Shown here in pieces: positions 592-43,568 of a stretch of 45,633 nucleotides of DNA. The notes below the pieces were generated by a model. That model did no database searches. It was given only the letters and a program-made list of their open reading frames with translations, and was not told where the DNA came from. Location of the stretch: UHGV virus genome UHGV-0361696; one strand, 5' to 3'. A program made the position numbers and the translations under genes. The DNA comes from a virus. Position 1 is the first letter of the stretch; every line of letters starts with the position of its first letter.

Positions 592-1665
592 ATGGAAAAG
601 ATTATTTTTACCAAAGACTTGGTAGCCAACTCCGCAGTGGTGGCTGACCAGTGGAAACATCTCACCATCGACCGTAAGGTGTTCTGCAATGCAGAAGCTG
701 AACTGGCGAAAACCTACGGTGTTAACGCCACCGCACTGGTAACGAAAGATTACTGGCGCGACGTGGATAACGTCACCACCCGCGTTTTCCGCAACGAAGC
801 TGGTCAGGATATGATGGCTGACCTGATGGGTATCGCGGCAAACATCAACATCGGTAAGACCGTGGCAATTAGTCGCATTGCTTCCGATGCTGGTAAGGTC
901 GTCCGCACCCTGTCTGGTCAGGAACCGGAAGATTTGGATAAAACTCGCTACGATTACACTGGCGATGTGATTCCAATCTTTAAGACTGGATACAGCCGCG
1001 AATGGCGCGAACTGCTGGGTATGCAATCTGAAGGTTTTGACCCGCTGCTGGATGACCAGGCTAACGTCACCTTCAACCTGCGTTCCGACATGGCGCAGTA
1101 CCTGCTGACCGGCGACCGGACTCTGAACGTGAACGGCGTGTACACTGGTTACGGTATCACCAACCACCCGAACACCATTCAGGTTAACCTGAGCACCGAT
1201 TCCCCCGGCCTGAATATCGACCTGCAAACCGCAACGCCAGATAAAATCGTGACCTTCTTCAATCAGGATTTCCAGGCTATTCTGGATGCGCAGAACGTAT
1301 TTGAGCAGGTGACTCTGTGGGTTTCCCCGGCAGTGCGCCGCAGCTTCATGCGTCCGTATTCTGATGCGGCCGGTTTCAAAGGCGGCACTGTTGAGCAGTA
1401 CATCACGCAGTTCGGCAATGGTCGCATCGGCAAGATTGGCACCAACTTCCTGCTGACTGGTAACCATTTCGTGGGCTACGTTCGTAACGAAATGTACATC
1501 CGTCCGCGCGTTGCTCAGCCTGTTTCCACCTATGCGGCAGCCCGTGACAATCCGCACGATAACTTTAACTTTATGGTGTGGTCAGCTTTCGGTTTGCAAA
1601 TCCGTAAGGATTTCAATGGTCGAAGCAAAGTTTTCAACGGCTACGGCACGCAAACTCCGCGGTAA
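592..1665 (+). CDS. major capsid protein (putative)
   Basis: 357-aa ORF between a scaffold-like gene and a strong intrinsic terminator. Position and size are typical of siphovirus MCPs. Confidence 0.6.
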   Translation: MEKIIFTKDLVANSAVVADQWKHLTIDRKVFCNAEAELAKTYGVNATALVTKDYWRDVDNVTTRVFRNEAGQDMMADLMGIAANINIGKTVAISRIASDAGKVVRTLSGQEPEDLDKTRYDYTGDVIPIFKTGYSREWRELLGMQSEGFDPLLDDQANVTFNLRSDMAQYLLTGDRTLNVNGVYTGYGITNHPNTIQVNLSTDSPGLNIDLQTATPDKIVTFFNQDFQAILDAQNVFEQVTLWVSPAVRRSFMRPYSDAAGFKGGTVEQYITQFGNGRIGKIGTNFLLTGNHFVGYVRNEMYIRPRVAQPVSTYAAARDNPHDNFNFMVWSAFGLQIRKDFNGRSKVFNGYGTQTPR

Positions 1666-2273: not shown

Positions 2274-2280
2274 ACTATAA

Positions 2281-2303
2281 CCCGCAAATGTGCGGGTTTT
2301 TTA
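2281..2303 (+). terminator. rho-independent terminator
   Basis: CCCGCAAATGTGCGGG followed by TTTTTT. Confidence 0.55.
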
Positions 2304-2382
2304 TTGGGGTTTCTATGGACGCAAGATGCGACAAATTTACCGCGCGAAAGATGATGATGCTTATCTTCCGTGATAAAAGAAA

Positions 2383-2404
2383 AGCCCCGGAAGGGGCTTA
2401 TTTT
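2383..2404. terminator. bidirectional terminator closing the minus-strand operon 4675->2403
   Basis: AGCCCCGGAAGGGGCT hairpin flanked by T-runs on both strands. Confidence 0.5.
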
Positions 2405-2591
2405 AACATGCAGATGCGGTCCAGTAATCGCCATAATCATTTACGTAATACTTGGTTAAACCAACCCATCCGCCACGCCTACACATTGCTTTAAACCTTT
2501 TCATGACCTGACTTTTTGTCAGGGTTATTACGTTGCCGTTTCCATCTCTCACAAAATCACCGCCAGATTTGTATGGTTTCTTTTCCATCAA
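2403..2591 (-). CDS. hypothetical protein (62 aa)
   Basis: Last gene of the minus operon. Overlaps the upstream gene by 4 nt. Confidence 0.4.
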   Translation of the reverse strand: MMEKKPYKSGGDFVRDGNGNVITLTKSQVMKRFKAMCRRGGWVGLTKYYVNDYGDYWTASAC

Positions 2592-3127
2592 TCAATCCTC
2601 ATCGGCATAACAATAACTTTGACATTCTCGCCAGTAGGCGCACTGATGTTTGCGACGGCGGCGTTGATGTTGCCGTTCAGTTCAAAGCGCACGCTTTTAT
2701 ATTTAGGGTTAAACAGCTTCGCCAGCTTCTCTACGTCTGCCAGATATTTGGCGTTGAAGCCGATTTGCTCTGTTGCCGCTGTCTGCTTTGGGATGGCACT
2801 ATCAATGTCAGGGAATCGGCCATTAATCTCAGAGCAGATACCTGCGCCTACCATGATTTCATGCTCGTCATGGTAAGTAACAATACCTGTTTTGGTGTCC
2901 AGTAGAGCATACGCATAACGCTTAGTTGGCGACTTGCTGACAGAAACGATAACGTTATCTTTCAATTTATTTTCATGCTTACTGGCAATCATGGCGCGAT
3001 GACCGTCAGTAGCGGCAACTCGACCATCAGGCATAAAGCAAATGCCATTCAGGTAATAGCGAACATCCTGTTTGGCCTGGAACATCAACGCGCCTTCAAG
3101 AAGTAACTTGCTGATTTTTAATTTCAT
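2588..3127 (-). CDS. truncated DNA polymerase III beta-clamp (DnaN) homologue, domain II plus partial domain III, no domain I
   Basis: Translation contains QDVRYYLNG...ATDGHR, GRFPD, IGFN and C-terminal VIVMPMRI. These are near-identical to E. coli DnaN domain II/III segments (QDVRYYLNG, ATDGHRL, GRFPD, IGFN, VVMPMRL) as recalled from memory. The product is 179 aa from the ATG at 3127, against about 366 aa for a real clamp. Confidence 0.65.
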   Translation of the reverse strand: MKLKISKLLLEGALMFQAKQDVRYYLNGICFMPDGRVAATDGHRAMIASKHENKLKDNVIVSVSKSPTKRYAYALLDTKTGIVTYHDEHEIMVGAGICSEINGRFPDIDSAIPKQTAATEQIGFNAKYLADVEKLAKLFNPKYKSVRFELNGNINAAVANISAPTGENVKVIVMPMRID

Positions 3128-3300
3128 CACTTCACCTTTATCATGTGTTGCTTTGCAACCTTCAGGCATTCATCGAAAATCTTGCCTTTCTTTTCACTCT
3201 GGTTGCGCATGTAGTGGGTAATTGCAGCCTCTATGGCCGCGTTGTCGATGCCTGGCAGTTTTTCGCGCAGGTTTTTCTCTATGAATTGTTCGGGGTTCAT
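3127..3300 (-). CDS. hypothetical protein (57 aa)
   Basis: ATG at 3300. Its stop overlaps the ATG of the clamp-like gene (TGATG). Not in the ORF track because it is under 60 aa. Confidence 0.35.
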   Translation of the reverse strand: MNPEQFIEKNLREKLPGIDNAAIEAAITHYMRNQSEKKGKIFDECLKVAKQHMIKVK

Positions 3301-3436
3301 TATTTAACCTTTTTAGAATCATGATCGCAGCCAATCATTTGATGAAAAACCCACGGAGCAAATCGACCAAGACCTATTCCAGTGCGCTCGCTTATGCTCC
3401 ATACAGCAGCCCACAGCATGCGCCAGATGTTAATCA

Positions 3437-4252
3437 TCACAACTTCTCCAGAATAGCCAGAACTTCACTTAACTCAGCGGAAGGAAGGCGCAAAAATTCT
3501 TCTGTTTCCTGTGCCACGTGGCCCTCAGCGACAACCATGTGATCTGCTTCTTTCAGCAACTGAATCAGGCGGTCAATCGGTTTAACTTTTTTTGCCTTGA
3601 GCGTTTTCGCCGTCACCTTATCCTTGCCCTGCGCTTTCGCTTCCTCAACGGCAGCATCAATAACGTTAACGGCATCATCTCCATGCTCGCGCGCCACTGC
3701 AACAGCGTTGGCATAGCTGATTTGGCCTGCGTTGATACGTTGCTTGATGGCATCAGGTACGTCACCAAGTGACAGGTGCATCTGCACATCAGAAACTGAG
3801 CGACCGACCTTCCTGGCGATTTCTTCATTCGTCCACCCGAACCCTTTCAGGCGCACATACGCCTTTGCACGCTCAAGCGGGTCGAGTTGCTTACCCTGAC
3901 TGGATGACACCATGAAGGCGATTTTATCCGCTTCATCGCCGGTGAAGTCTTTGCACTCAATGCGCGCAATTGGTACGCCGCGCTCAATAGCTCGCAGCGC
4001 GCCAAGATAACGATGCTGGCCGTCAAGAATCTTAATGCGCTTTCCGGCAGCATCAGGAATAACAGTTAACGCCGGGATTGGCTGTCCTGATTCCCAGCAC
4101 TGCGCGAAGTATTCAACGTGCTGCTCATCGGCTTCGCGGATGTTGTACCCCGGCTCAAGATAAAGCTGGTCGACAGGAACCTGATAACCTTTGTTGACCA
4201 CGATTCCGCCGCGAGTTTCTTTGTCTGAGTAAATTTTTCCGAGAGATGTCAT
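3437..4252 (-). CDS. ParB-like nuclease domain protein
   Basis: ILDGQHRY motif (ParB/Srx fold) plus a helix-turn-helix-like middle region. Start chosen at MTSLG with a GAGGA RBS. Confidence 0.6.
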   Translation of the reverse strand: MTSLGKIYSDKETRGGIVVNKGYQVPVDQLYLEPGYNIREADEQHVEYFAQCWESGQPIPALTVIPDAAGKRIKILDGQHRYLGALRAIERGVPIARIECKDFTGDEADKIAFMVSSSQGKQLDPLERAKAYVRLKGFGWTNEEIARKVGRSVSDVQMHLSLGDVPDAIKQRINAGQISYANAVAVAREHGDDAVNVIDAAVEEAKAQGKDKVTAKTLKAKKVKPIDRLIQLLKEADHMVVAEGHVAQETEEFLRLPSAELSEVLAILEKL

Positions 4253-4372
4253 CTTTTCCTCACTTTGATAAACAGATTGCGCTGGCAATGGCGAATCCGA
4301 TAACGATTAATGCCAGCTTTATTTTGAACTTATCCCACGCTTTCAGGTCTTCTTTGCGGATTTCGTGGCGGA

Positions 4373-4675
4373 TCATTGTGATTCTCCGATGGCTTTAGCA
4401 ATTGCGGCATAAGCCTTGCTCAAAGCAGTGGCATTCCTTTTTGTTGGCGTAGTGAAGACTACAAGCATCTCCAGAGCCTCCAGCAATTCCGGTGCTGCGG
4501 CCATCATTCGTTGGTTGGCAATTTGAACCTCAACTTCAGGGTCAAACTCAACCCAGCCGACAGGAATAATCATTCCATAAGACTGGTCGTCCTCTGTTGA
4601 TTTTGGCCCTATTGCCCTGCCGTTATCTATAAACCACGGCCCCGGCGTACCTTTAAATTCTTTCATCTTCATCAC
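4373..4675 (-). CDS. hypothetical protein (100 aa), first gene of minus operon
   Basis: ORF directly downstream of a TTGACG-17-TATAGT promoter. Confidence 0.5.
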   Translation of the reverse strand: MMKMKEFKGTPGPWFIDNGRAIGPKSTEDDQSYGMIIPVGWVEFDPEVEVQIANQRMMAAAPELLEALEMLVVFTTPTKRNATALSKAYAAIAKAIGESQ

Positions 4676-4706
4676 CTATAAAATTTATTGTTGTTTCTAC
4701 GTCATC

Positions 4707-4735
4707 ACTATAGCGGCACCCTCAATCTACGTCAA
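4707..4735 (-). promoter_or_regulatory. sigma70-like promoter TTGACG-17 nt-TATAGT containing the recurring TTGACGTAGATTGAG motif
   Basis: Reverse complement of 4707-4735 reads TTGACGTAGATTGAGGGTGCCGCTATAGT. It is almost identical to the plus-strand promoter at 28296-28324. Confidence 0.5.
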
Positions 4736-5672: not shown

Positions 5673-6017
5673 ATGTCAGCAATAGCGAGATGGAGCTATA
5701 CGCAGCCATGCACAATCTGGCGGCTTACTGGCAAGGATAAGTATGGCAAGCCAACATTCGCCGCGCCAGAATCCATCATGTGTGATTATGGCTTCGATAA
5801 GAATCTGACCACCGGCACAGTTGGCAATGAGATTGCACAGAAAAACACATTCTGGACGGAATACCAGGATGCGTCTGTTGGCGACTTCATCATGCTTGGC
5901 ACCATTACCAGTGCTGACCCTTTGGCTGCCGGAGCTGACCAGATTAGAAACGTCGTGAATTACGGCAATACGCTGGACCGCAATGACCTGCCTGATTTTG
6001 CGCTAGTAACGGGGTAA
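5673..6017 (+). CDS. hypothetical structural protein (114 aa)
   Basis: Tightly packed ORF in the head-tail connector region. Confidence 0.45.
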   Translation: MSAIARWSYTQPCTIWRLTGKDKYGKPTFAAPESIMCDYGFDKNLTTGTVGNEIAQKNTFWTEYQDASVGDFIMLGTITSADPLAAGADQIRNVVNYGNTLDRNDLPDFALVTG

Positions 6018-6020
6018 TGT

Positions 6021-6437
6021 ATGGCCGCCAAAATGCGAGGTATCCAGCAGGCGATTAAGCGCACCCAGCAGATAGTCGGTGAGATTACTGGTGAGAAGGC
6101 GGTATCAGCAATAAAAGCCGCCAACTACATCATCAGGACTGAATCGGCCTCCATGACGCCAGTAGCCACGTCAACGCTGATAAATAGCCAGTATGACACC
6201 GTTGAGGTTAATGGCACTCGCATAACTGGCAAGATTGGGTATTCCGCTAATTACGCCCTGTATGTCCATAATGCACCAGGTAAACTGCTTGGCACGAATA
6301 CGCCGCGCACAGGGCGGCTCAAAGGAAAGGGCAACGTATGGGATAAGAGCGGCGAGCCCAAATTCCTTCTCAAGGCTGGCGAAAACACACGTGAACTTGT
6401 CGATCAGGTAATTAAAAAAGAGATGACGCTAAAATGA
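6021..6437 (+). CDS. hypothetical structural protein (138 aa), neck/tail-completion candidate
   Basis: Lies between head and tail genes. Translationally coupled to its neighbours. Confidence 0.45.
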   Translation: MAAKMRGIQQAIKRTQQIVGEITGEKAVSAIKAANYIIRTESASMTPVATSTLINSQYDTVEVNGTRITGKIGYSANYALYVHNAPGKLLGTNTPRTGRLKGKGNVWDKSGEPKFLLKAGENTRELVDQVIKKEMTLK

Positions 6438-6817
6438 GAGATATGCTTGAGCTTGTTGACCAGTACCTTAGCGATGCCGGTCTTTATGATGGGTGGACTT
6501 CTCAGCTTGAGTTCTGGAACGATACCGAAGTTGGCACAGATCGGTTTATGGTGCTGCAATCCAATGGCGGTACGAACGTAAGCAAAGACCTCAGCAATGA
6601 TTATTATTTTTCGCTCTATGTTGTCGGCCAGCAGGGTCAGTACAACATCGAGGAAACAAAAGCAAAAGCGCTTGATGTCATCGCATACATCAAAGAGCAT
6701 CCCGTTGATAGTTGTATTGGCATGATTCAGTTGCAGGCGCCGCTTGGTCGCCCTACGCTTACAACAGAGAAAAGGCCTGTTTATGAGTTGTTGCTGAGGG
6801 TTGTTTTTGGTGAATAA
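6434..6817 (+). CDS. hypothetical structural protein (127 aa)
   Basis: ATGA overlap with the previous gene. Followed by a terminator. Confidence 0.45.
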   Translation: MRDMLELVDQYLSDAGLYDGWTSQLEFWNDTEVGTDRFMVLQSNGGTNVSKDLSNDYYFSLYVVGQQGQYNIEETKAKALDVIAYIKEHPVDSCIGMIQLQAPLGRPTLTTEKRPVYELLLRVVFGE

Positions 6818-6963: not shown

Positions 6964-7039
6964 TGGTTCCCGCGACAGGATTCGAACCTGTAATCATCCG
7001 ATTATGAGTCGGGTGCTTTAACCAGTTAAGCTAAACGGG
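6964..7039 (-). tRNA. tRNA-Met (anticodon CAT; could be tRNA-Ile2 if lysidinylated)
   Basis: Cloverleaf: acceptor TCCCGTT/CGCGGGA, D-stem GCTT/AAGC, anticodon loop CTCATAA, T-arm ACAGG-TTCGAAT-CCTGT, encoded CCA. Confidence 0.75.
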
Positions 7040-7043
7040 AATT

Positions 7044-7120
7044 TGGTGCACCATACTGGATTCGAACCAGTTACCGATTGCTTAGAAGGCAATTGCTCTA
7101 TCCTGATGAGCTAATGGTGC
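7044..7120 (-). tRNA. tRNA-Arg (anticodon TCT)
   Basis: Perfect 7-bp acceptor GCACCAT/ATGGTGC, D-stem GCTC/GAGC, anticodon stem ATTGC/GCAAT with loop CTTCTAA, T-arm ACTGG-TTCGAAT-CCAGT, encoded CCA. Confidence 0.8.
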
Positions 7121-8405: not shown

Positions 8406-8711
8406 TCAATGGTCATCACCATCCTCGCTTATTGCGGCATCCAGCTGGCGGCGCAGCATACACAGCGCGCCATGCGGCATAAACTGATTAGCCATGCCAT
8501 CGAATATCTGGCGGTTTAATTTATTATCAATGCGCGGCCTGATTGCTGACCAGCACGCGCGGATTGATTTGTTAACCTGACGACCTTCAATCATAGCCAG
8601 TTTTGCAGCCAACTCTACAGTCACAAGGGCATCTAAATATTGCTCGCATGCGTATCGGCTCTCGTCGCCAACTGACGCGCCATCATCTGAACCTGCAGAT
8701 TCAACACTCAT
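8406..8711 (-). CDS. hypothetical acidic protein (about 101 aa), minus-strand cassette inside the tail module
   Basis: ORF-track ORF. ATG at 8711 preceded by GAGGAAGG. Confidence 0.45.
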   Translation of the reverse strand: MSVESAGSDDGASVGDESRYACEQYLDALVTVELAAKLAMIEGRQVNKSIRACWSAIRPRIDNKLNRQIFDGMANQFMPHGALCMLRRQLDAAISEDGDDH

Positions 8712-8862
8712 CACGCCTTCCTCGTCTTGTTCTTGATGCCCACAAAATCAGATTGGCGATAAACTCAGCACGTCGCAGGTGAATTGCTATCGCGTAGTTT
8801 ATGTCGATGCGCTGGCCTGCATATGCAGATATGACATCTTCGTCGTCTTTGTTTACTGGCAT
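8701..8862 (-). CDS. hypothetical small protein (53 aa)
   Basis: ATG at 8862. Overlaps the downstream ORF start. Hand-translated. Confidence 0.35.
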   Translation of the reverse strand: MPVNKDDEDVISAYAGQRIDINYAIAIHLRRAEFIANLILWASRTRRGRRDEC

Positions 8863-8865
8863 TTT

Positions 8866-8994
8866 TAATCCTCCACCACTACGCCAATCTTAGCCAGCAA
8901 CAAAATCGCCTTTACGCGGGCCTCATCATAGGTAAACCCGCAATCAACGTACAGGTCGATGTAAAATCTCAAATCAGCATCAGTCTCGTTCATA
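8866..8994 (-). CDS. hypothetical small protein (42 aa)
   Basis: ATG at 8994 just inside the promoter region. Hand-translated as MNETDADLRFYIDLYVDCGFTYDEARVKAILLLAKIGVVVED. Confidence 0.3.
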
Positions 8995-9020
8995 TGTCAA
9001 ACCCTCAATCACCTTATGCT

Positions 9021-9062
9021 TTCAATCTACGTCAGTTTTGCTCCCCCTGTCAATGGTATAAT
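9021..9062 (+). promoter_or_regulatory. promoter with extended -10 (TGGTATAAT) plus upstream TTCAATCTACGTCA motif
   Basis: TTCAATCTACGTCA...CCTGTCAATGGTATAAT, about 30 nt upstream of the 9091 ATG. Confidence 0.45.
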
Positions 9063-9798: not shown

Positions 9799-12700
9799 TG
9801 GCAGAAACAGTTGGCGGCATTATCTATGAGGTTGGCATTGACACATCTCAGTTAGCAGCTGGTAGTCGTGAATTGCAGTCAATGCTAAATGGACTTAGCG
9901 GGAACATGGGGCGACTTGAGGCCAGTGTAAACAGGACAGAGCGCTCTATTGGATCGATGGAACGAACAATGTCCAGCCTTTCTGGCGTTGCCAAGGGATT
10001 GTTCGCGGCGCTTTCTGTGCAACAGGTTGCGAGTTACGCCGATGCCTGGACTGAACTAAATAACAAGGTAGCTAACTCGGTTCGTACTGGAGAGACGCAG
10101 ACCGAAGTTATGCAGCGGATCTTTGATGTTTCACAAGCAACCCAGTCATCCCTGAACGGCACGGCGACTCTTTACGCCAGACTTGAGCGAGGAACCAGGG
10201 CGTACAACACCAGCGCTGAAGATTTAGTCCGCCTGACCACTATTATCAACCAGGGGTTTGCAGTATCCGGTGCAACAGCTCAGGAAGCTGAGAACGCAAT
10301 CATTCAGCTATCACAGGGTATCGCTTCCGGCGTTCTGCGCGGCGAGGAGTTTAACTCAGTGTCAGAGCAAGGCAGCCGCCTCATGGTAGCTCTGGCTGAT
10401 TCGATGGGTGTTTCTATCGGTCAGTTGAGGGCTATGGCCGCTCAGGGGCAGCTAACAACAGACGTTGTAGTTAATGGGCTTCTATCACAAGGGGATGCAA
10501 TCGGCAAAGAATTTGCCAACACCACCGTCTCAATCGCCAAGGGATTGCAGGTAGCCGGTAACAACGTAACGAAGTTCTTTGGCGAAAACTCGACGGTTAA
10601 ATCATTTGCAGCAGGGTTCCGAGACTCTGTCATCACAATAAGTGAGAACCTTGAGACGCTGAGCGGCGCCCTTATCATTGTAGCTGGCATAATGGGAAGT
10701 CGGTATGTTGGCGCGCTGGCAATGTCCACTGCCGCGAAAATATCAGATATAGCGGCATCAAGACAGCAATTAATAGCTGAGAATCAGCAGGCACAATCAG
10801 CGCTTGTGGCTGCAAATTCCGCGCGGAGGAAGGCGCTGGCTGATAAAGAGGCGGCGCTATCATCTCTGGCGCTTGCTCAGGCTGAATATAACATAGCAAA
10901 AGGCAGCGCAGCCGAGATGCTGGCGCTTGATGCTCTGGTTGCGGCAAAATCAAGAGCGAGCGCCGCGTCACTATCCCTTGCTCAGGCTGAAAACGCACAG
11001 GCTGCCGCATCAGCGAGAGCAGCATCAGCGGCAAGGGCCGCATCGGTAGGGATTGGACTTGCCAGAGGTGCACTTTCATTGATAGGCGGCCCAGCTGGCG
11101 CGGCAATGTTAGCGGCGGGGGCAATATTTTACTTCTGGCAGAAAGCACAGCAAGCCAGAGAAGAAGCAATCCGCTTTGCCGATGGCCTGGATAAAGTTAA
11201 CGCCTCAATGAAGGCGATGAACAATACCCAACTCAGGGGGGCGATAGCTGACGCCAATGTTTCAATTAGGGCGCAAGAGGAAGCTATTAGCGATCTGAAG
11301 GACACCATTTCAGACCTGCAATCCGATTACGAGAAATATACAACGCTTGCAAGAAAGTACGGGGTTGCCGAAGATCAAAATAATGGGTTCGTGATTAAGG
11401 CAACGGATGCCGCAGACCAGTTAGCTAAAAAGCGTAGGGATTTAGCTGATGCTGAGGAAAAACTAGCAAGAACTCAGGAAACGGCAGCCGAAGCAAGCAG
11501 GACCCTTACAAACAACATGCTCACGTCCATGGGTGTGCATGATGGTCTGATTGAGAAAGGTTCGACCCTTGAGAGAGTGCAGGGCGCGGTGGCAAGAGCA
11601 TTCGGATTGACCGCCGATGAAATAAACCGAGCAAATCAGGCAGGACAAAACTTCAACCCCAAATCCTTGCAGGTATCAGCCCCAACAAAAGAAGCAGATA
11701 AGATGATTCTCAGCCTTGAGGAGCAGAATCAGCTTTTAAAAATACAGGATGAAAGACAAAGGGCGGTAACAAAAGCACGGCTGGAGGCTCAAAAGGTAAC
11801 TGATAACCCCAATCAGATAGCCAGAGCTGCTGAGCTTGCGGGTCAGATATATGATTTAAATGAGGCCGAGAAAGCAAGGGAAAAATCGCAAAATGATTCT
11901 CAATCAGCGGCCCAAAAAGCCGCCACAGAGCAGGAGAATATCGCTAATAAACTTGAGCAGTTACGACAAGAATCCTTATTAACAGCAGATAGCACAAAAG
12001 AGCTATCCCGCGAGCAAGCAATACTACAGGCTCAACAATCACTAGGAAAAGGCGCTACAGAGGAGCAAACAAGACTCGCTGGAGAGTACAAGGCTAAGGC
12101 ATGGGATAATGCCAACGCGATAAAGGCTCAGGCAGAGGCGGAGAAACAAAGGGTCGAAGCTGTAAAAGGATTCGCTGCATTAAAATCGCAGACATCACCA
12201 ATGTTTGCCGTTGAAACAAACTATCAGAAGGATTTAGCAGCGCTCAATGCTTATGCGGTGGCTTACCCGCAAAAGATAGCGGAGGTTGAGCAGGCCAGAG
12301 CAGCAATTGAGGAGCAATACCGCCAGCAGCGCCTCGATGCCATGTGGCAGGAGTGGAGCCAGCAGAACGCGGCCACACAAGCGGCCGCTGCTGCATTTGA
12401 TGCTTTTGGGCAAACCGCAAGCAACGCCTTAACTGGCGTTCTGACTGGCTCAATGTCTGTTAGCGAGGCGCTACAGTCAATAGGGAGTAATGTGTTAAAT
12501 GCGGTTATTAACTCCTTCGTTCAGATGGGCGTAGAGTGGCTTAAATCGGTAATTATGGGACAGGCAGGGATGACTGCGGCATCAGGGATGGCTGCAGCCC
12601 AAGCCCAAATAATCGCAGCGGCTATGGCGCCAGCAGCAGCGATGACATCACTTGCTACGGGTGGCGCTAACGCAGTACCTGCACAGGCTGGCATTGTTTC

Positions 12701-22989: not shown

Positions 22990-24934
22990 TTTGTTCTCCT
23001 ATGAAATCCTTGCGGTGGATGATATCTCGGCCTTTATCGTTAAAACGATGCGTAATGCGTTTAGGCGCGCGGATTAAACCGGCGTAATGCATGAAAGTCT
23101 TCGCATCATGACAGTCCATCATTTTCTTCAGCATGGACTTATCTTCAAGATGAGGAAGCAGAGCCTTCATTTTAAACATATCGCGCAGATGCTTTGGCTT
23201 GCCTCCGAACGGATAAAACACCTCATTTGCCCAGCCGGTCTTGCCATCAGCTTTTACCACCAGGTAACGATAAAGAACCCCCTCAGCGTCTTTGGTCAAC
23301 TCGACTTTAAAATCTTGTACATCTGTCCATTCTTTATCGGTATAAGCACGCTCATTAAGCGCCGCATTAGGGTCGCGCAAAACGTGATCGCATTGACGGC
23401 AATAACGAGCTGTCGGATCGTTCTTTGTTCCACATCCATCATCAAAAATGCGGATGCCGTGCTTGTCGAAACCACAGCGAATGAAGCTGAAAAACTCTTC
23501 GCATCGTCCATCTGGAGACGTTGAGTCTTTACCGATGCAGCGCCGTGCATATGGGCTGTTCATCGTCTGGCATTTAGGGCATGGAACTTGCTCTCCGCTG
23601 CGTTTGGCGCGCTGTGCTTCTGCTTCCTCAAGAATAGGGTCTTCGTACAGACCGCCAAGCTCAAACATGGTTCCGGTGAAGTCAAGGCAAAGATGGTTTT
23701 CTTTCACCAGACCTGCGGCAATCTGGTCTGGCTTCAATAATCGCATTGGTCGGCCAAGTAACTGCGTCAGAAGAGTCAGGGACATGATTTTTCTCAGGAT
23801 GACAGACGTGTCCCAATATGGGATGTTGACGCCAGTCGTCAGGCAACCGATTTGCAGCGTGTATTTTTTGCGCCCGGTTGCCGCATCTTTCAGAGCTTTC
23901 CGTCTGGCTTTCTGCCCCATATCCTCGGTAACAATGGAATAACTGCCTTCTGGTAAATATTTTGCAGCCTCCTTGCAATGTTTTTTACCTGCGCAGGTAA
24001 TGAGTACACCAAGTCTGTCGCGCGTAAGCTCCATGACTTTGAGCATTATTTTTTGCGTCAATGTACCCTGCTTGAGGATTTCTTCCTGCATCTCTTTTAG
24101 CTGGCTATCAGTGAAGTCCTGCACTCCGTCAACGTCACTACTGGCAAACTCATGCAGATCGTATTGCAAGTCCTCGATATCCTGCCCGCCAAAGATGGTA
24201 GGGACAAGAAACCCAAGATCGACAAGGTATTTAGTGCTGATGTTGACGATTTCATGTTTCCAGTAAGCCCCTTTTATCGACTCAACGCCGCGAAATGGGC
24301 TGCCGGTGTAGCCAATGACAATCACCTCATGCCCGTACTTGGATTTGCAGCGCCGGTTAAGTTCATTCATGATGACACCGTACTGCGTCTCTGGCTGATC
24401 TGATATTATGTCCTGCCAGTTAACCTGGTGACATTCATCGACAAGGATGTAGCGAGGGGTAAAGTCCGAAAGCAAAGATTTTGTCACTGTGCCATCGTCT
24501 GCCGTCTTATCAAAAAGACCATTTATTATTGTGCCCTCTGTTCCCGCGATAAGCGGATAGGCATAAGCCTTACGCCCAAGTGAAGCGCTAAACAAAGAGT
24601 TTTTTACGCTCAGGTTCCAAAGCTCCTCAGCATCCTGCTCAATAATTTCGCCTTGTCTTGCGATGACAAGCCCCTCCCACCCCATATCCTGAAACCGACG
24701 GGCAATCATGGCTATCATGATGGTCTTACCGGCGCCAACTGATGCGGTAACATAACTTGGTTTAGGTTCTCTACCAAACTTGCGGATAACCTCCGCTGTC
24801 TTTTCATACACTAGCCACTGATATGGGCGAGGTTCAATTTCCCCGGTATGGATGCTGGCACGCAGCTTATCCATATCCAGCTCAGCAATCATTGCATCAA
24901 TTTTTTGCACTTCATCCACCTTTGTGTTGCTCAA
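22976..24934 (-). CDS. SF2 (DEAD/DEAH-like) DNA helicase with C-terminal zinc ribbons, TTG start
   Basis: Motif I SVGAGKT and motif II VDECHQV. C-terminal CPKC...C and CRQC clusters. The start codon is TTG at 24934-24932. Confidence 0.7.
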   Translation of the reverse strand: MSNTKVDEVQKIDAMIAELDMDKLRASIHTGEIEPRPYQWLVYEKTAEVIRKFGREPKPSYVTASVGAGKTIMIAMIARRFQDMGWEGLVIARQGEIIEQDAEELWNLSVKNSLFSASLGRKAYAYPLIAGTEGTIINGLFDKTADDGTVTKSLLSDFTPRYILVDECHQVNWQDIISDQPETQYGVIMNELNRRCKSKYGHEVIVIGYTGSPFRGVESIKGAYWKHEIVNISTKYLVDLGFLVPTIFGGQDIEDLQYDLHEFASSDVDGVQDFTDSQLKEMQEEILKQGTLTQKIMLKVMELTRDRLGVLITCAGKKHCKEAAKYLPEGSYSIVTEDMGQKARRKALKDAATGRKKYTLQIGCLTTGVNIPYWDTSVILRKIMSLTLLTQLLGRPMRLLKPDQIAAGLVKENHLCLDFTGTMFELGGLYEDPILEEAEAQRAKRSGEQVPCPKCQTMNSPYARRCIGKDSTSPDGRCEEFFSFIRCGFDKHGIRIFDDGCGTKNDPTARYCRQCDHVLRDPNAALNERAYTDKEWTDVQDFKVELTKDAEGVLYRYLVVKADGKTGWANEVFYPFGGKPKHLRDMFKMKALLPHLEDKSMLKKMMDCHDAKTFMHYAGLIRAPKRITHRFNDKGRDIIHRKDFIGEQIEAA

Positions 24935-24984
24935 TCTACGTCACAATAGTAGACTGAATCTACGGCAATAATCAAGGTTAAATT

Positions 24985-27984: not shown

Positions 27985-28256
27985 ACCAGTTCCCAAGAGT
28001 TCCCGCGCATTTGGGAACTCGCAGGCCGCTCGCACCAAGGCTTGCAGAGGAGTTCCCGAGTTCCCGGGGAATTCCTCTAGTAAAAAAGTAATATATACCT
28101 TTAATAGATGTTGTTGTTTTTATTAGTAAAAATGGAGTTTCTAATTTTTTGGAAAATTCATTTCTAAGGAAAAAGCTGGGAACTCGGGAACTCGTTGATA
28201 TATAACAATAAATTCCGGGAACTCGTCCGGGAACAGTTGGGAATTATGGGAACACT
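27985..28256. repeat. iteron-like array: about 10 copies of GGGAACTCG (and its inverse CGAGTTCCC) arranged symmetrically around a roughly 100-bp AT-rich core. Candidate origin or operator region.
   Basis: Left arm has CGAGTTCCC at 27997, 28050, 28058 and GGGAACTCG at 28013. Right arm has GGGAACTCG at 28178, 28186, 28218 and GGGAAC at 28229, 28248. Core 28081-28170 is over 75% AT. Confidence 0.55.
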
Positions 28257-28295: not shown

Positions 28296-28324
28296 TTGAC
28301 GTAGATTGAGCGCCATCGTATAGT
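28296..28324 (+). promoter_or_regulatory. sigma70-like promoter TTGACG-17-TATAGT for the early plus-strand cluster
   Basis: TTGACGTAGATTGAGCGCCATCGTATAGT, 30 nt upstream of the 28356 ATG. Confidence 0.55.
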
Positions 28325-35307: not shown

Positions 35308-35337
35308 AATCTACGCCATGCTAGAATCTACGTCAAG
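35308..35337. promoter_or_regulatory. divergent promoter pair built on two copies of the AATCTACG(Y)CA motif
   Basis: Plus strand has AATCTACGCCA followed by TGCTAGAAT (extended -10). Minus strand has TTGACG-17-TAGATT. Confidence 0.45.
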
Positions 35338-39510: not shown

Positions 39511-39542
39511 TTCAATCTACGTCAAGACTATTGTGATAAAAT
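39511..39542. promoter_or_regulatory. divergent promoter region: TTCAATCTACGTCAAG motif plus extended -10 TGATAAAAT for the endolysin gene
   Basis: Motif at 39511-39526. TGATAAAAT at 39534-39542, 25 nt before the endolysin ATG. Confidence 0.45.
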
Positions 39543-41790: not shown

Positions 41791-41885
41791 TGCCTCTCTC
41801 CTGTGAAATCATCTTGACTAATCTACGTCAATTAGTCAATACTAGGTGTTGTAGATTGTATCATAGTTGCTAGGAGTGGTGTGGA

Positions 41886-42603: not shown

Positions 42604-43108
42604 TCATGAGGTTGTTTTGTCGTTAATCAATTATAACCCAGAGTCTGGGGAATTCACCAGAAAGAATGGAAAGCAATGCGGTACAAAAACAACGAAGGGG
42701 TACATCCATGTGCGATTGCTTGGTAAAAAGCGTCTTGCGCATCGTTTGGCTTGGTTTTATGTCTACGGCGAATGGCCAGAGCATGAAATTGACCATATTA
42801 ACGGAGTAAAGGATGACAACAGGATATGCAATCTAAGGAAGGCAACAAGACAACAAAATGAATGGAACAAGCCGCAGCCAAGCACCAACACGTCTGGCGT
42901 CAAGGGTGTGCGGTTTATGTCAAGTAGAGGAAAATGGCGTGCTGATTGCGTGAGAAAAACACTTGGTTACTTTGACACAAAGCAAGATGCTATTAATGCG
43001 TTAATTAAGCACAGGAGTGAAAAACAAGGGGAATTCAAAAATCACGGCCACCTCTACACCGCTGACGACTACAAGCAAGATGCAATGGAGCGCGCAAATG
43101 GACTTTAA
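42584..43108 (+). CDS. HNH-AP2 homing endonuclease (paralogue 3 of 3)
   Basis: AHRLAWFYVYGEWPEHEIDHINGVKDDNRICNLR plus NTSGVKGVRFMSSRGKWRA. Start chosen at MMKCD (GAGG RBS). Overlaps the 3' end of the Lar-like gene. AT-rich. Confidence 0.8.
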   Translation: MMKCDLNHEVVLSLINYNPESGEFTRKNGKQCGTKTTKGYIHVRLLGKKRLAHRLAWFYVYGEWPEHEIDHINGVKDDNRICNLRKATRQQNEWNKPQPSTNTSGVKGVRFMSSRGKWRADCVRKTLGYFDTKQDAINALIKHRSEKQGEFKNHGHLYTADDYKQDAMERANGL

Positions 43109-43568
43109 AACACAAATACTCACGGTGATAGAGCGCTGCGGCGGCGCAACCAATGCCATGATACGCAAGCAGACTGGCATGACAAACCGAGCCAGCGTTA
43201 CTGGTTATCTGATTGAGCTTGAGGGCATGGGATTTATTATTAAAGAGGAAAGCGTAAGCCATGGCAGGCGCTGCTTTAAGTATTTCCTCAATCCCGATAA
43301 TACTGCGCTTGACCTGGCAATTCAGACCTATCTTGAGGCGAACCCGGGACGCAAGAGCAAGCAGATAGCAGAGGCTGTAGGCGTCAATTACACCATCCTC
43401 AAGGCGCGCATGCGCTATCTGGCAAGCATTGGTCAGGTTGACCGTGAAATGCTTCCCGGCGGAGCATGGAAATATTACTGGCAGGAAATCATTCCGTTTG
43501 GAATGAGTCGTGACAGGATGATGTTTGAAAAGCTACTTGCCGGGGCGCGTCAGTCATGTGGGCGGTAA
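43098..43568 (+). CDS. winged-helix DNA-binding protein (MarR-like), possible transcription regulator
   Basis: NAMIRKQTGMTNRASVTGYLIELEGMGFI resembles a wHTH recognition region. Start overlaps the HNH gene end. Confidence 0.45.
   Translation: MDFKTQILTVIERCGGATNAMIRKQTGMTNRASVTGYLIELEGMGFIIKEESVSHGRRCFKYFLNPDNTALDLAIQTYLEANPGRKSKQIAEAVGVNYTILKARMRYLASIGQVDREMLPGGAWKYYWQEIIPFGMSRDRMMFEKLLAGARQSCGR

Follow-up and report, generated by a model that had tools for sequence, protein, structure and literature searches.

The 45,633-nucleotide stretch of the virus genome UHGV-0361696 analysed here, called the window below, is nearly a whole phage genome. On its minus strand, between the capsid and head-tail genes, lies a self-contained antisense operon of seven genes (the cassette). 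One of these genes encodes a half-size β sliding clamp derived from DnaN, and another encodes a protein of the ParB/KorB type. The clamp has lost the parts that close the β ring, whereas the pocket to which clamp partners dock has been kept. Taken together, these features lead us to a reading that is held tentatively, with rather less than even confidence: the clamp might be a non-encircling, DNA-bound adaptor that presents the pocket, and the ParB-like protein might be a KorB-like organiser or regulator. The original prediction, made from the bare sequence, had described the locus as a moron-like cassette of a T1-like phage, in which a ParB-like nuclease is paired with a clamp fragment. The self-contained antisense unit in the structural region, with its own promoter and terminator and in opposite orientation, and the pairing of a ParB/Srx-fold protein with a DnaN-derived protein were both borne out; other parts of that description were revised, as shown below.

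The clamp (179 residues) has clear homology to the bacterial β clamp. A phmmer search of the PDB returned β clamps (1e-12), aligning with β residues 136-295 and 311-366, and hhalign gave a probability of 99.1. The AlphaFold2 (AF2) model has a pLDDT of 96.7 and a pTM of 0.90, and Foldseek retrieved only β clamps from the PDB, with TMq values of 0.65-0.69 for E. coli β. The protein corresponds to domain II of β without its second helix, followed by one half-domain of domain III that carries IGFN..Y and the C-terminal VMPMR; domain I and the other half of domain III are missing. In β, the head-to-tail dimer interface has one of its faces on domain I. The interface region around I272 and L273 is also absent from the clamp; mutation of these two residues of domain III makes β monomeric (PMC11139829). 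Since domain I and half of domain III, and with them the dimer interface, are lost, the canonical ring cannot close. DnaN and the clamp share the fold and the pocket motifs, but DnaN is a three-domain protein of 366 residues and the clamp is about half that length, and its score against the clamp model TIGR00663 is 37.7 for a cutoff of 137.65. The clamp is also basic rather than acidic: its calculated isoelectric point (pI) is 9.1 and the family median is 8.5, whereas that of E. coli β is calculated to be about 5.25.

The pocket for clamp-binding motifs is the best-preserved part of the protein. The clamp retains its motifs QDVRYYLNG, ATDGHR, GRFPD, IGFN..Y and VMPMR. Conservation was evaluated over 84 family members having 25-49% identity. 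Twelve of the 28 best-conserved positions are equivalent to R152, Y154, L155, T172, G174, H175, P242, N320, Y323, M362, P363 and R365, and all of these except Y154 are in the published list of subsite I and II pocket residues (PMC11139829). The 11 listed equivalents are conserved at 77-100%. The mean conservation was 0.75 at 19 pocket-region positions (17 listed, plus Y154 and L366), compared with 0.41 overall. This distribution indicates that the pocket is kept under strong selection, and binding of ligands there is predicted.

The original prediction had called the clamp a fragment. It belongs, however, to a large phage family: members were counted in 293 phage records, clustering at 50% identity gave over 100 groups of proteins that are 170-200 residues long, and the clamp is a full-length member of PHROG 3007 (2.2e-57). 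Many structural twins were found among predicted viral proteins of Pantoea, Serratia, Burkholderia, Rhodococcus and other phages. A decayed dnaN fragment or pseudogene was considered and rejected; it is countered by the ratio of nonsynonymous to synonymous substitution rates (dN/dS; 0.11-0.22 against relatives), the family size and the confidence of the model. It should be mentioned that the name "RusA-like Holliday junction resolvase", given to this protein in RefSeq (NC_071151, NC_042037 and NC_016566) and in PHROG 3007, looks like a propagated mis-annotation. A resolvase was also rejected: Pfam, searched with E values up to 0.1, returned only two DNA_pol3_beta domains, and every fold match was a β clamp.

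The ParB-like protein (271 residues) has a three-part build, in which an N-terminal NTPase fold of the ParB/Srx kind, bearing a DGQHR motif, is followed by a ParB/KorB helix-turn-helix (HTH) and a small C-terminal domain. The Pfam families HTH_ParB (PF17762, 7e-11) and KorB (PF08535, 9e-6) were both matched over their cutoffs, and the protein matched PHROG 1033 at 1.6e-86. Sequence matches in the PDB were Spo0J, ParB, Noc and KorB, and they span the N-terminal domain and the HTH. The best Foldseek match of the AF2 model (pLDDT 84) was KorB of RK2 (8qa9; TMt 0.71, root-mean-square deviation of 3.2 Å), followed by Noc and ParB, with E values of 2e-9 to 2e-7 for these matches; the model has an extra C-terminal helix-strand-strand-helix domain. 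Both elements that define the ParB/KorB/Noc superfamily, the ParB/Srx N-domain and the ParB-type HTH, are present. "ParB-like nuclease" is a historical label for the fold, and the nuclease of the original prediction could not be upheld: family searches detected no nuclease domain in this full KorB/ParB/Noc architecture.

Several features of a canonical ParB of a ParABS system were not found. No ParA gene is present in the cassette, nor does the annotation of the full genome of pYD38-A, a relative with 95% identity, contain one. The ParA-binding motif [LIF]G[KR]G[LIF], as defined in bioRxiv 10.1101/2025.10.10.680097, does not occur at the N-terminus of the protein, which reads MTSLGKIYSDKE. The family has an invariant DG[QH]HR (DGQHRYLGA in the window) where ParB has GERR, and SSSQGK at the position of the ENLQR of ParB, which makes use of cytidine triphosphate (CTP) uncertain. 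The scores against TIGR00180 (parB_part; 40.8 for a cutoff of 58.45) and against the DGQHR domain model are under the curated cutoffs. Divergent orphan ParB folds are common on plasmids and phages and can bind ATP or GTP instead of CTP (bioRxiv 10.1101/2025.10.10.680097). Orphan ParB-like proteins such as VirB, BisD and HerB are described as DNA-loaded regulators. From these comparisons, the ParB-like protein is probably neither a partition protein nor a nuclease, and it might be a KorB-like DNA binder, switched by nucleoside triphosphate (NTP), that organises or regulates the phage DNA.

The resemblance to KorB of RK2 extends from the three-part build, the two Pfam matches and the top fold match possibly to the candidate operators: a short motif is repeated at several promoters, including its own, as is seen for KorB. 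Like KorB, Noc, VirB, BisD and HerB, the protein has no ParA partner and is carried by a mobile element. It differs from KorB and the orphan ParBs in the two boxes mentioned above and in its candidate sites, which are mostly direct repeats; unlike KorB, it has no known KorA-like partner here, and the element that carries it is a virulent phage. A family member with 47% identity over 82% of the query was also seen at 10001-10813 of a 64-kb contig (L021, ENA NODE_31). It lies in a lambdoid prophage, on the strand opposite to a lambda-P-type replication gene and downstream of a CI-like repressor gene, in a gene run that includes genes for a Rad52-type recombinase, an exonuclease, CsrA, single-stranded DNA-binding protein (SSB) and Dam. 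The family is therefore not restricted to lytic phages.

The pairing of the two proteins was seen in two lineages. In Serratia phage Eta, a homologue of the ParB-like protein (31% identity, 1e-20) directly precedes the clamp, which is followed by a helicase and a primase; the paper on this phage notes only an orphan ParB without ParA or parS. In the lambdoid Hafnia phage yong1 the order is cII, clamp, O-like and P-like; in LIET2 the clamp follows a helicase and a VRR-NUC nuclease; in Lumpael it is flanked by two methyltransferases, of which one is of the Dam type and lies downstream of a primase; and in Vibrio phage R19R it is followed by a hypothetical protein, Dam and SSB. In the Dhillonvirus Shigella phage EP23 (L004, 3998-5356) the clamp forms an antisense island beside the scaffold gene, together with an Nmad5 protein, a family reported as a trigger-related gene for the Tmn defence system (PMC11846954). 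In the Guernseyvirinae Salmonella phage SE1 (L010, 3971-4486) it is a lone antisense gene beside the capsid genes. As judged from these gene orders, the common thread of the clamp neighbourhoods is DNA replication or modification. Among the genes of the window are those for two helicases (one of them SF2), a primase, an AAA_24 recombinase, a PDDEXK exonuclease and SSB, and no DNA polymerase gene was found in it. A general rule that the clamp depends on the phage lacking a polymerase was rejected, as EP23 and SE1 encode polymerases.

The cassette is preceded by a σ70-type promoter, as the original prediction had it, with TTGACG and TATAGT separated by 17 nucleotides and 10 of 12 consensus positions matched. 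Such a match taken singly is not above chance: a scan gave 8 promoter-like matches in 8 kb, and 9.2 were expected. The -35 hexamer, however, falls within the 14-mer TTGACGTAGATTGA, which occurs in 8 copies in the genome where 0.23 are expected; its core, CGTAGATT, occurs in 9 copies where 1.0 is expected. The motif sites are seven promoter regions, that is, those of the cassette and of six other units: the antisense island at 8406-8993, the start of the helicase-exonuclease-SSB operon (24931-24968) and four small-gene units (28296, 35336, 39525 and 41831). Together with a second half-site, GACGTAGA, the 14-mer at the cassette makes an operator-like repeat, and second or third copies of GTAGAT are found 19-29 nucleotides off the main site at the 24944, 35336 and 39525 promoters.

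The identical 14-mer lies upstream of the cassette in eight relatives (ZC2, pIS4-A, pYD38-A, Skate, YX3973, BUCT610, DP01 and KP591P1). In a distant contig (L019), whose ParB-like protein is 54% identical, the variant TTGACGCAGATATTG occurs with the same TATAGT, and another distant contig has the inverted pair AATCTAC-N5-GTAGATT. Judging from this recurrence, the cassette promoter belongs to a conserved family of predicted host-polymerase promoters with an operator-like element. As the motif regulon is shared with the replication and recombination genes, the cassette is called non-late; its timing would be early, as inferred from the type of promoter. The GTAGATT repeats are perhaps the site of the ParB-like protein, whose own operon is among the seven promoter regions that carry the motif.

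The combined reading can be laid out as follows. Host RNA polymerase would read the cassette from the consensus-like σ70 promoter, whose -35 element lies within the phage-specific repeat GACGTAGATTGA that also marks the six other promoter regions. The seven coupled genes would be transcribed as one message ending at the hairpin terminator. For the ParB-like protein, binding to phage DNA in dimeric form is envisaged, perhaps with the GTAGATT repeats as its sites; in the manner of KorB, VirB or Noc, it might organise the DNA under the control of an NTP switch or regulate the early regulon. The mini-clamp is a single-chain remnant of the host β clamp that has lost the ring parts, kept the pocket and become basic. 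It could bind DNA directly, without a clamp loader, and its pocket could hold proteins having clamp-binding motifs on the phage DNA. The candidate ligands would be, most plausibly in a phage without its own polymerase, the α and ε subunits of host DNA polymerase III (Pol III), or other polymerase or repair factors. The small genes of the cassette are considered to be accessory passengers in swap-prone slots. A broader version is regarded as a rather long shot: the short phage clamps (PHROG 3007 and its structural relatives) would be a new class of loader-independent, non-encircling processivity or recruitment factors, the equivalent in bacterial viruses of herpesvirus UL42. They would contact DNA with a basic face and use the pocket to catch host Pol III or other proteins having clamp-binding motifs; in this phage group, an NTP-switched ParB/KorB slider loaded at GTAGATT would join them in a two-part platform that diverts the host replisome to phage DNA.

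Herpesvirus UL42 provides a likeness to the proposed mini-clamp. UL42 is a viral protein with a clamp fold, it is basic and non-encircling, it holds its polymerase via a pocket near the inter-domain connector, and it binds DNA directly as a monomer. The two are unrelated in sequence. In addition, UL42 has two full domains and a virus-encoded polymerase as its partner, whereas DNA binding and the partner of the mini-clamp are predicted.

Several observations weigh against the combined reading. About 28% of close relatives lack the clamp, which makes it dispensable. EP23 and SE1 own polymerase genes and nevertheless carry the clamp beside capsid or scaffold genes rather than replication genes, and no exposed clamp-binding motif was found on any phage protein. 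(Two loose matches to the motif in phage proteins were discarded; one of them, QMHLSL, lies within the structured HTH helix of the ParB-like protein and is not credible.) On the side of the ParB-like protein, the N-domain has no GERR CTP motif, and scans for perfect and one-mismatch parS-like palindromes found none that is repeated, although a site could be missed since the specificity is unknown. The GTAGATT repeats are mostly direct, whereas typical ParB/KorB sites are palindromic; they could be bound by a different conserved regulator, for example the winged-helix protein encoded at 43017-43568. The early timing of the cassette is read from the promoter type. Finally, a soluble decoy of host factors fits the pocket evidence equally well.

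This last alternative, that the mini-clamp is a soluble decoy of the β pocket which soaks up host proteins with clamp-binding motifs, is unlikely, yet it is the main rival. Its targets would be Hda, Pol III subunits, the δ subunit of the clamp loader, MutS/MutL, Pol IV/V and ligase, and host replication, mismatch repair or translesion synthesis would be shut down or deregulated, from which the phage would profit. The pocket residues are conserved more than any other part of the family, and the parts that form the ring are missing; the clamp is accessory and not essential in close relatives, and it is present in polymerase-bearing phages. Moreover, phages are known to intervene at host β: the C protein of phage Mu docks on it via a clamp-binding motif (PMC12867686). 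On the other hand, a phage without a polymerase must keep host Pol III running, the basic character of the family, which is unlike that of β, suggests contact with nucleic acid, and the clamp often adjoins replication initiators, helicases and primases.

A further alternative is that the whole cassette is a moron, horizontally acquired, dispensable and outside the core programme of the phage. By DNA and protein comparison, the closest relatives of the phage are the Roufvirus phages pYD38-A (Vibrio) and pIS4-A (Aeromonas) and many unclassified Klebsiella siphoviruses, and Skatevirus phages are more distant. On these matches the phage is a virulent Klebsiella siphovirus of the Roufvirus/Skatevirus type and not T1-like, as had been proposed; kinship with T1 or the Drexlerviridae was returned by no relative search. 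A "Roufvirinae" cluster has been proposed for such Klebsiella phages (PMC11769527), and members of the group are described as lytic.

The core of the cassette is conserved across these relatives. At a threshold of 60% identity, orthologues of the capsid protein were counted in 203 phage records, those of the ParB-like protein in 194 and those of the clamp in 146. Skate and contig L019 both have the cassette at the corresponding position, and its G+C content (47.8%) is that of the genome (47.5%). The small genes are designated here by the lengths of their products (g97, g38, g45, g57 and g61). In the eight relatives, the ParB-like protein and g57 (70-98% identity) were found in all, g38 was intact in seven (89-100%), being annotated in BUCT610, DP01 and KP591P1, and the clamp was found in six, being missing from BUCT610 and KP591P1. 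The dN/dS values against relatives (0.03-0.10 for the ParB-like gene, 0.09-0.16 for g57 and 0-0.31 for g38, in addition to that of the clamp given above) indicate that these four genes are under purifying selection.

Other parts of the cassette turn over. Only BUCT610 of the eight has g45, at 100% identity; the slot is occupied in other relatives by open reading frames (ORFs) of 85 or 115 residues, or by a methylase with endonuclease VII. The latter pair, a C5-methylase and endonuclease VII, lies between the ParB-like gene and g57 in YX3973, ZX4, KpV2811 and BUCT541. No match to g61 was found among the eight relatives. Homologues of g61, with 73% identity, were seen only in four Klebsiella phages of about 50 kb (KW1, KW1.1, KW1.2 and RCIP0004); this distribution suggests that g61 was recently exchanged into the distal slot of the operon.

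Compared with the morons of the lambda/HK97 type, the cassette has its own promoter and terminator (predicted signals) amid the late genes, in opposite orientation, and its distal genes are gained and lost. Presence and absence among close relatives, which is typical of morons, is seen for the clamp, g45, g61 and the methylase insert and not for the core (g38, the ParB-like gene and g57). Deviant base composition was not found, and foreign origin by composition was rejected in the absence of a G+C anomaly. The variable gene content and the occurrence of g61 in otherwise unrelated Klebsiella phages would fit a moron. However, the core and the position are kept across the whole group, the promoter motif is common to the replication/recombination operon and five other units, and a group described as lytic has no prophage state for a moron to serve. 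The near-universal position and core and the genome-like G+C content argue against a classic moron, and this explanation of the whole cassette is improbable. From this comparison, the cassette is a conserved phage component with swap-prone internal slots, and not a recent add-on. The term "moron-like" in the original prediction fits the anatomy and the distal genes and not the cassette as a whole. That prediction had regarded universal conservation with a known housekeeping role as the finding that would speak against it; conservation across relatives was indeed observed, whereas no housekeeping role is known.

The placement among the head genes would be explained if the clamp, possibly with the ParB-like protein as a slider, linked DNA replication or DNA ends to late transcription, as T4 gp45 does with gp33/gp55 and as phage Mu C does with host β (PMC2988020 and PMC12867686). 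The clamp is an antisense island by capsid or scaffold genes in three siphovirus groups (the window, EP23 and SE1), and KorB-type proteins, which include the top structural match of the ParB-like protein, are sliding transcription regulators. Nevertheless, such coupling is very improbable: no late-promoter element or partner with a clamp-binding motif was identified, the clamp lies in replication modules in other phages, and relatives without the clamp still make virions. Even less probable is a role in DNA modification or anti-restriction, in which the two proteins would target or assist methyltransferases or base-modifying enzymes: although a C5-methylase is inserted in the cassette of some relatives, the clamp has Dam or a different methyltransferase as its neighbour in Lumpael and R19R, and an Nmad5 protein in EP23, and phage ParB folds are often fused to methyltransferases (bioRxiv 10.1101/2025.10.10.680097), the cassette of the window has no modification enzyme, and the link may merely reflect co-located early genes of DNA metabolism.

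The coordinates of the cassette, its signals and its flanks are given in the table below. The original prediction of a five-gene minus-strand operon was right in its extent and strand, but seven ORFs were counted. Five of the six junctions overlap by 1-4 nucleotides (ATGA or TGATG), which is a signature of translational coupling, and the sixth is a gap of 7 nucleotides. Shine-Dalgarno sequences precede the gene starts; that of g97 (AGGTGA) is ahead of the ATG at 4666. The clamp ORF has an extra upstream ATG at 3169, but in pIS4-A, pYD38-A, YX3973 and Skate the gene begins at the coupled start, 3127. Among the small genes, g97 evolves fast (27-93% identity in relatives) and g45 matches PHROG 20955 (2.6e-7). 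None of the seven proteins matched a defence system in the PADLOC models.

Table. Features of the cassette and its surroundings in the window
Feature	Position	Strand	Remarks
σ70-type promoter	4735-4707	-	-35 TTGACG 4735-4730; 17-nucleotide spacer; -10 TATAGT 4712-4707
14-mer regions	4722-4735, 9022-9035, 24931-24968, 28296-28309, 35308-35336, 39512-39525, 41818-41831		
Second half-site	4696..4703	-	Just downstream of the -10
Cassette ORF block	4675/4666 down to 2403	-	Seven ORFs
g97, first gene	4373..4666	-	97 residues, acidic, PHROG 1273; alternative GTG start 4675
g38	4260..4376	-	38 residues, basic, one hydrophobic helix; start overlaps g97 stop (ATGA)
ParB-like gene	3437..4252	-	271 residues, ParB/KorB-type
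g45	3300..3437	-	45 residues, hydrophobic or basic peptide, variable slot; start overlaps ParB stop (TGATG)
g57	3127..3300	-	57 residues, basic, PHROG 4439; directly upstream of the clamp gene wherever the clamp is present
Mini β-clamp gene	2588..3127	-	179 residues, DnaN-derived
g61, last gene	2403..2588	-	61 residues, basic, variable slot
Cassette terminator hairpin	2382..2399	both possible	GC-rich, 7-bp stem; ends the operon
Terminator closing the capsid operon	2279..2298	+	Intrinsic; convergent with the cassette terminator
Major capsid gene	592-1665	+	Flank of the cassette
Head-tail genes	5673-6817	+	Other flank; orthologue of 6021-6437 named HK97 gp10 family protein in relatives

The terminator had been predicted to be bidirectional, and this was supported in part. 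The hairpin, which is flanked by an A-tract and a T-tract, folds on both strands. On the minus strand it is followed by the U-run UUUUCUUUU (-13.9 kcal/mol, z -2.9); on the plus strand the fold is -17.7 kcal/mol (z -4.2) with a weaker U-tract. With its two flanking tracts, the terminator may also be active on the plus strand. In the record of Salmonella phage Skate, this junction carries annotated terminators for either strand.

Other features of the window should be mentioned. A second antisense island (8406-9035; ORFs of 42, 53 and 102 residues) separates the major tail gene from the tail-assembly genes, and it is apparently driven by the same promoter motif as the cassette; in relatives, this place is taken by a gene named "immunity to superinfection" and one for an HNH endonuclease. 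Genes for tRNA-Met(CAT) and tRNA-Arg(TCT) are also on the minus strand within the structural region (6964-7120), and upstream of them is a strong promoter-like site, TTGACA-16-TAGATT, at 7521-7494. At 27989-28253, in the interval that separates the helicase operon from the 28296 promoter, ten of the 14 GGGAAC/GTTCCC hexamers in the genome (9-mer GGGAACTCG) are gathered into two blocks, inverted with respect to each other, on either side of an AT-rich stretch; in 200 shuffles the largest cluster had 5. At the same position pYD38-A has other repeats, GGGTTA/TAACCC. The cluster is probably a replication origin with iterons that co-vary with a protein other than the ParB-like protein. It was rejected as a site of the latter, as the ParB-like protein of pYD38-A is 93% identical and the repeats there are different. 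The genome is mosaic: the capsid protein is 95-97% identical to those of Skate-type Salmonella and E. coli phages and 78-80% to those of the pIS4-A type, and the ParB-like protein is 98-99% identical to those of Klebsiella Roufvirus-like phages and 81% to that of Skate.

About 200 phage genomes already carry annotations of the cassette, which are in part erroneous. Sequenced phages with the half-size β clamp number in the hundreds, and their hosts include enterobacteria, vibrios and Burkholderia; databases name the protein either "DNA polymerase III beta subunit" or, incorrectly, "RusA-like resolvase". Literature searches found nothing published on the role of this clamp and nothing relevant on truncated or DnaN-like phage clamps or on a ParB-clamp pair. 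Three features are worth pursuing: the pocket-only mini β-clamp, its ParB/KorB-type companion and the common promoter/operator regulon. The recurrent pairing of the clamp with an orphan ParB/KorB-type protein in lytic phages adds to the cases in which a ParB fold serves outside partition. The common promoter/operator motif is a directly testable early regulon in Klebsiella phages that are candidates for therapy. Since the clamp preserves the exact docking pocket of clamp partners, it would be a natural probe of, or a weapon against, the hub of the host replisome, which is also a target of antibiotic programmes.

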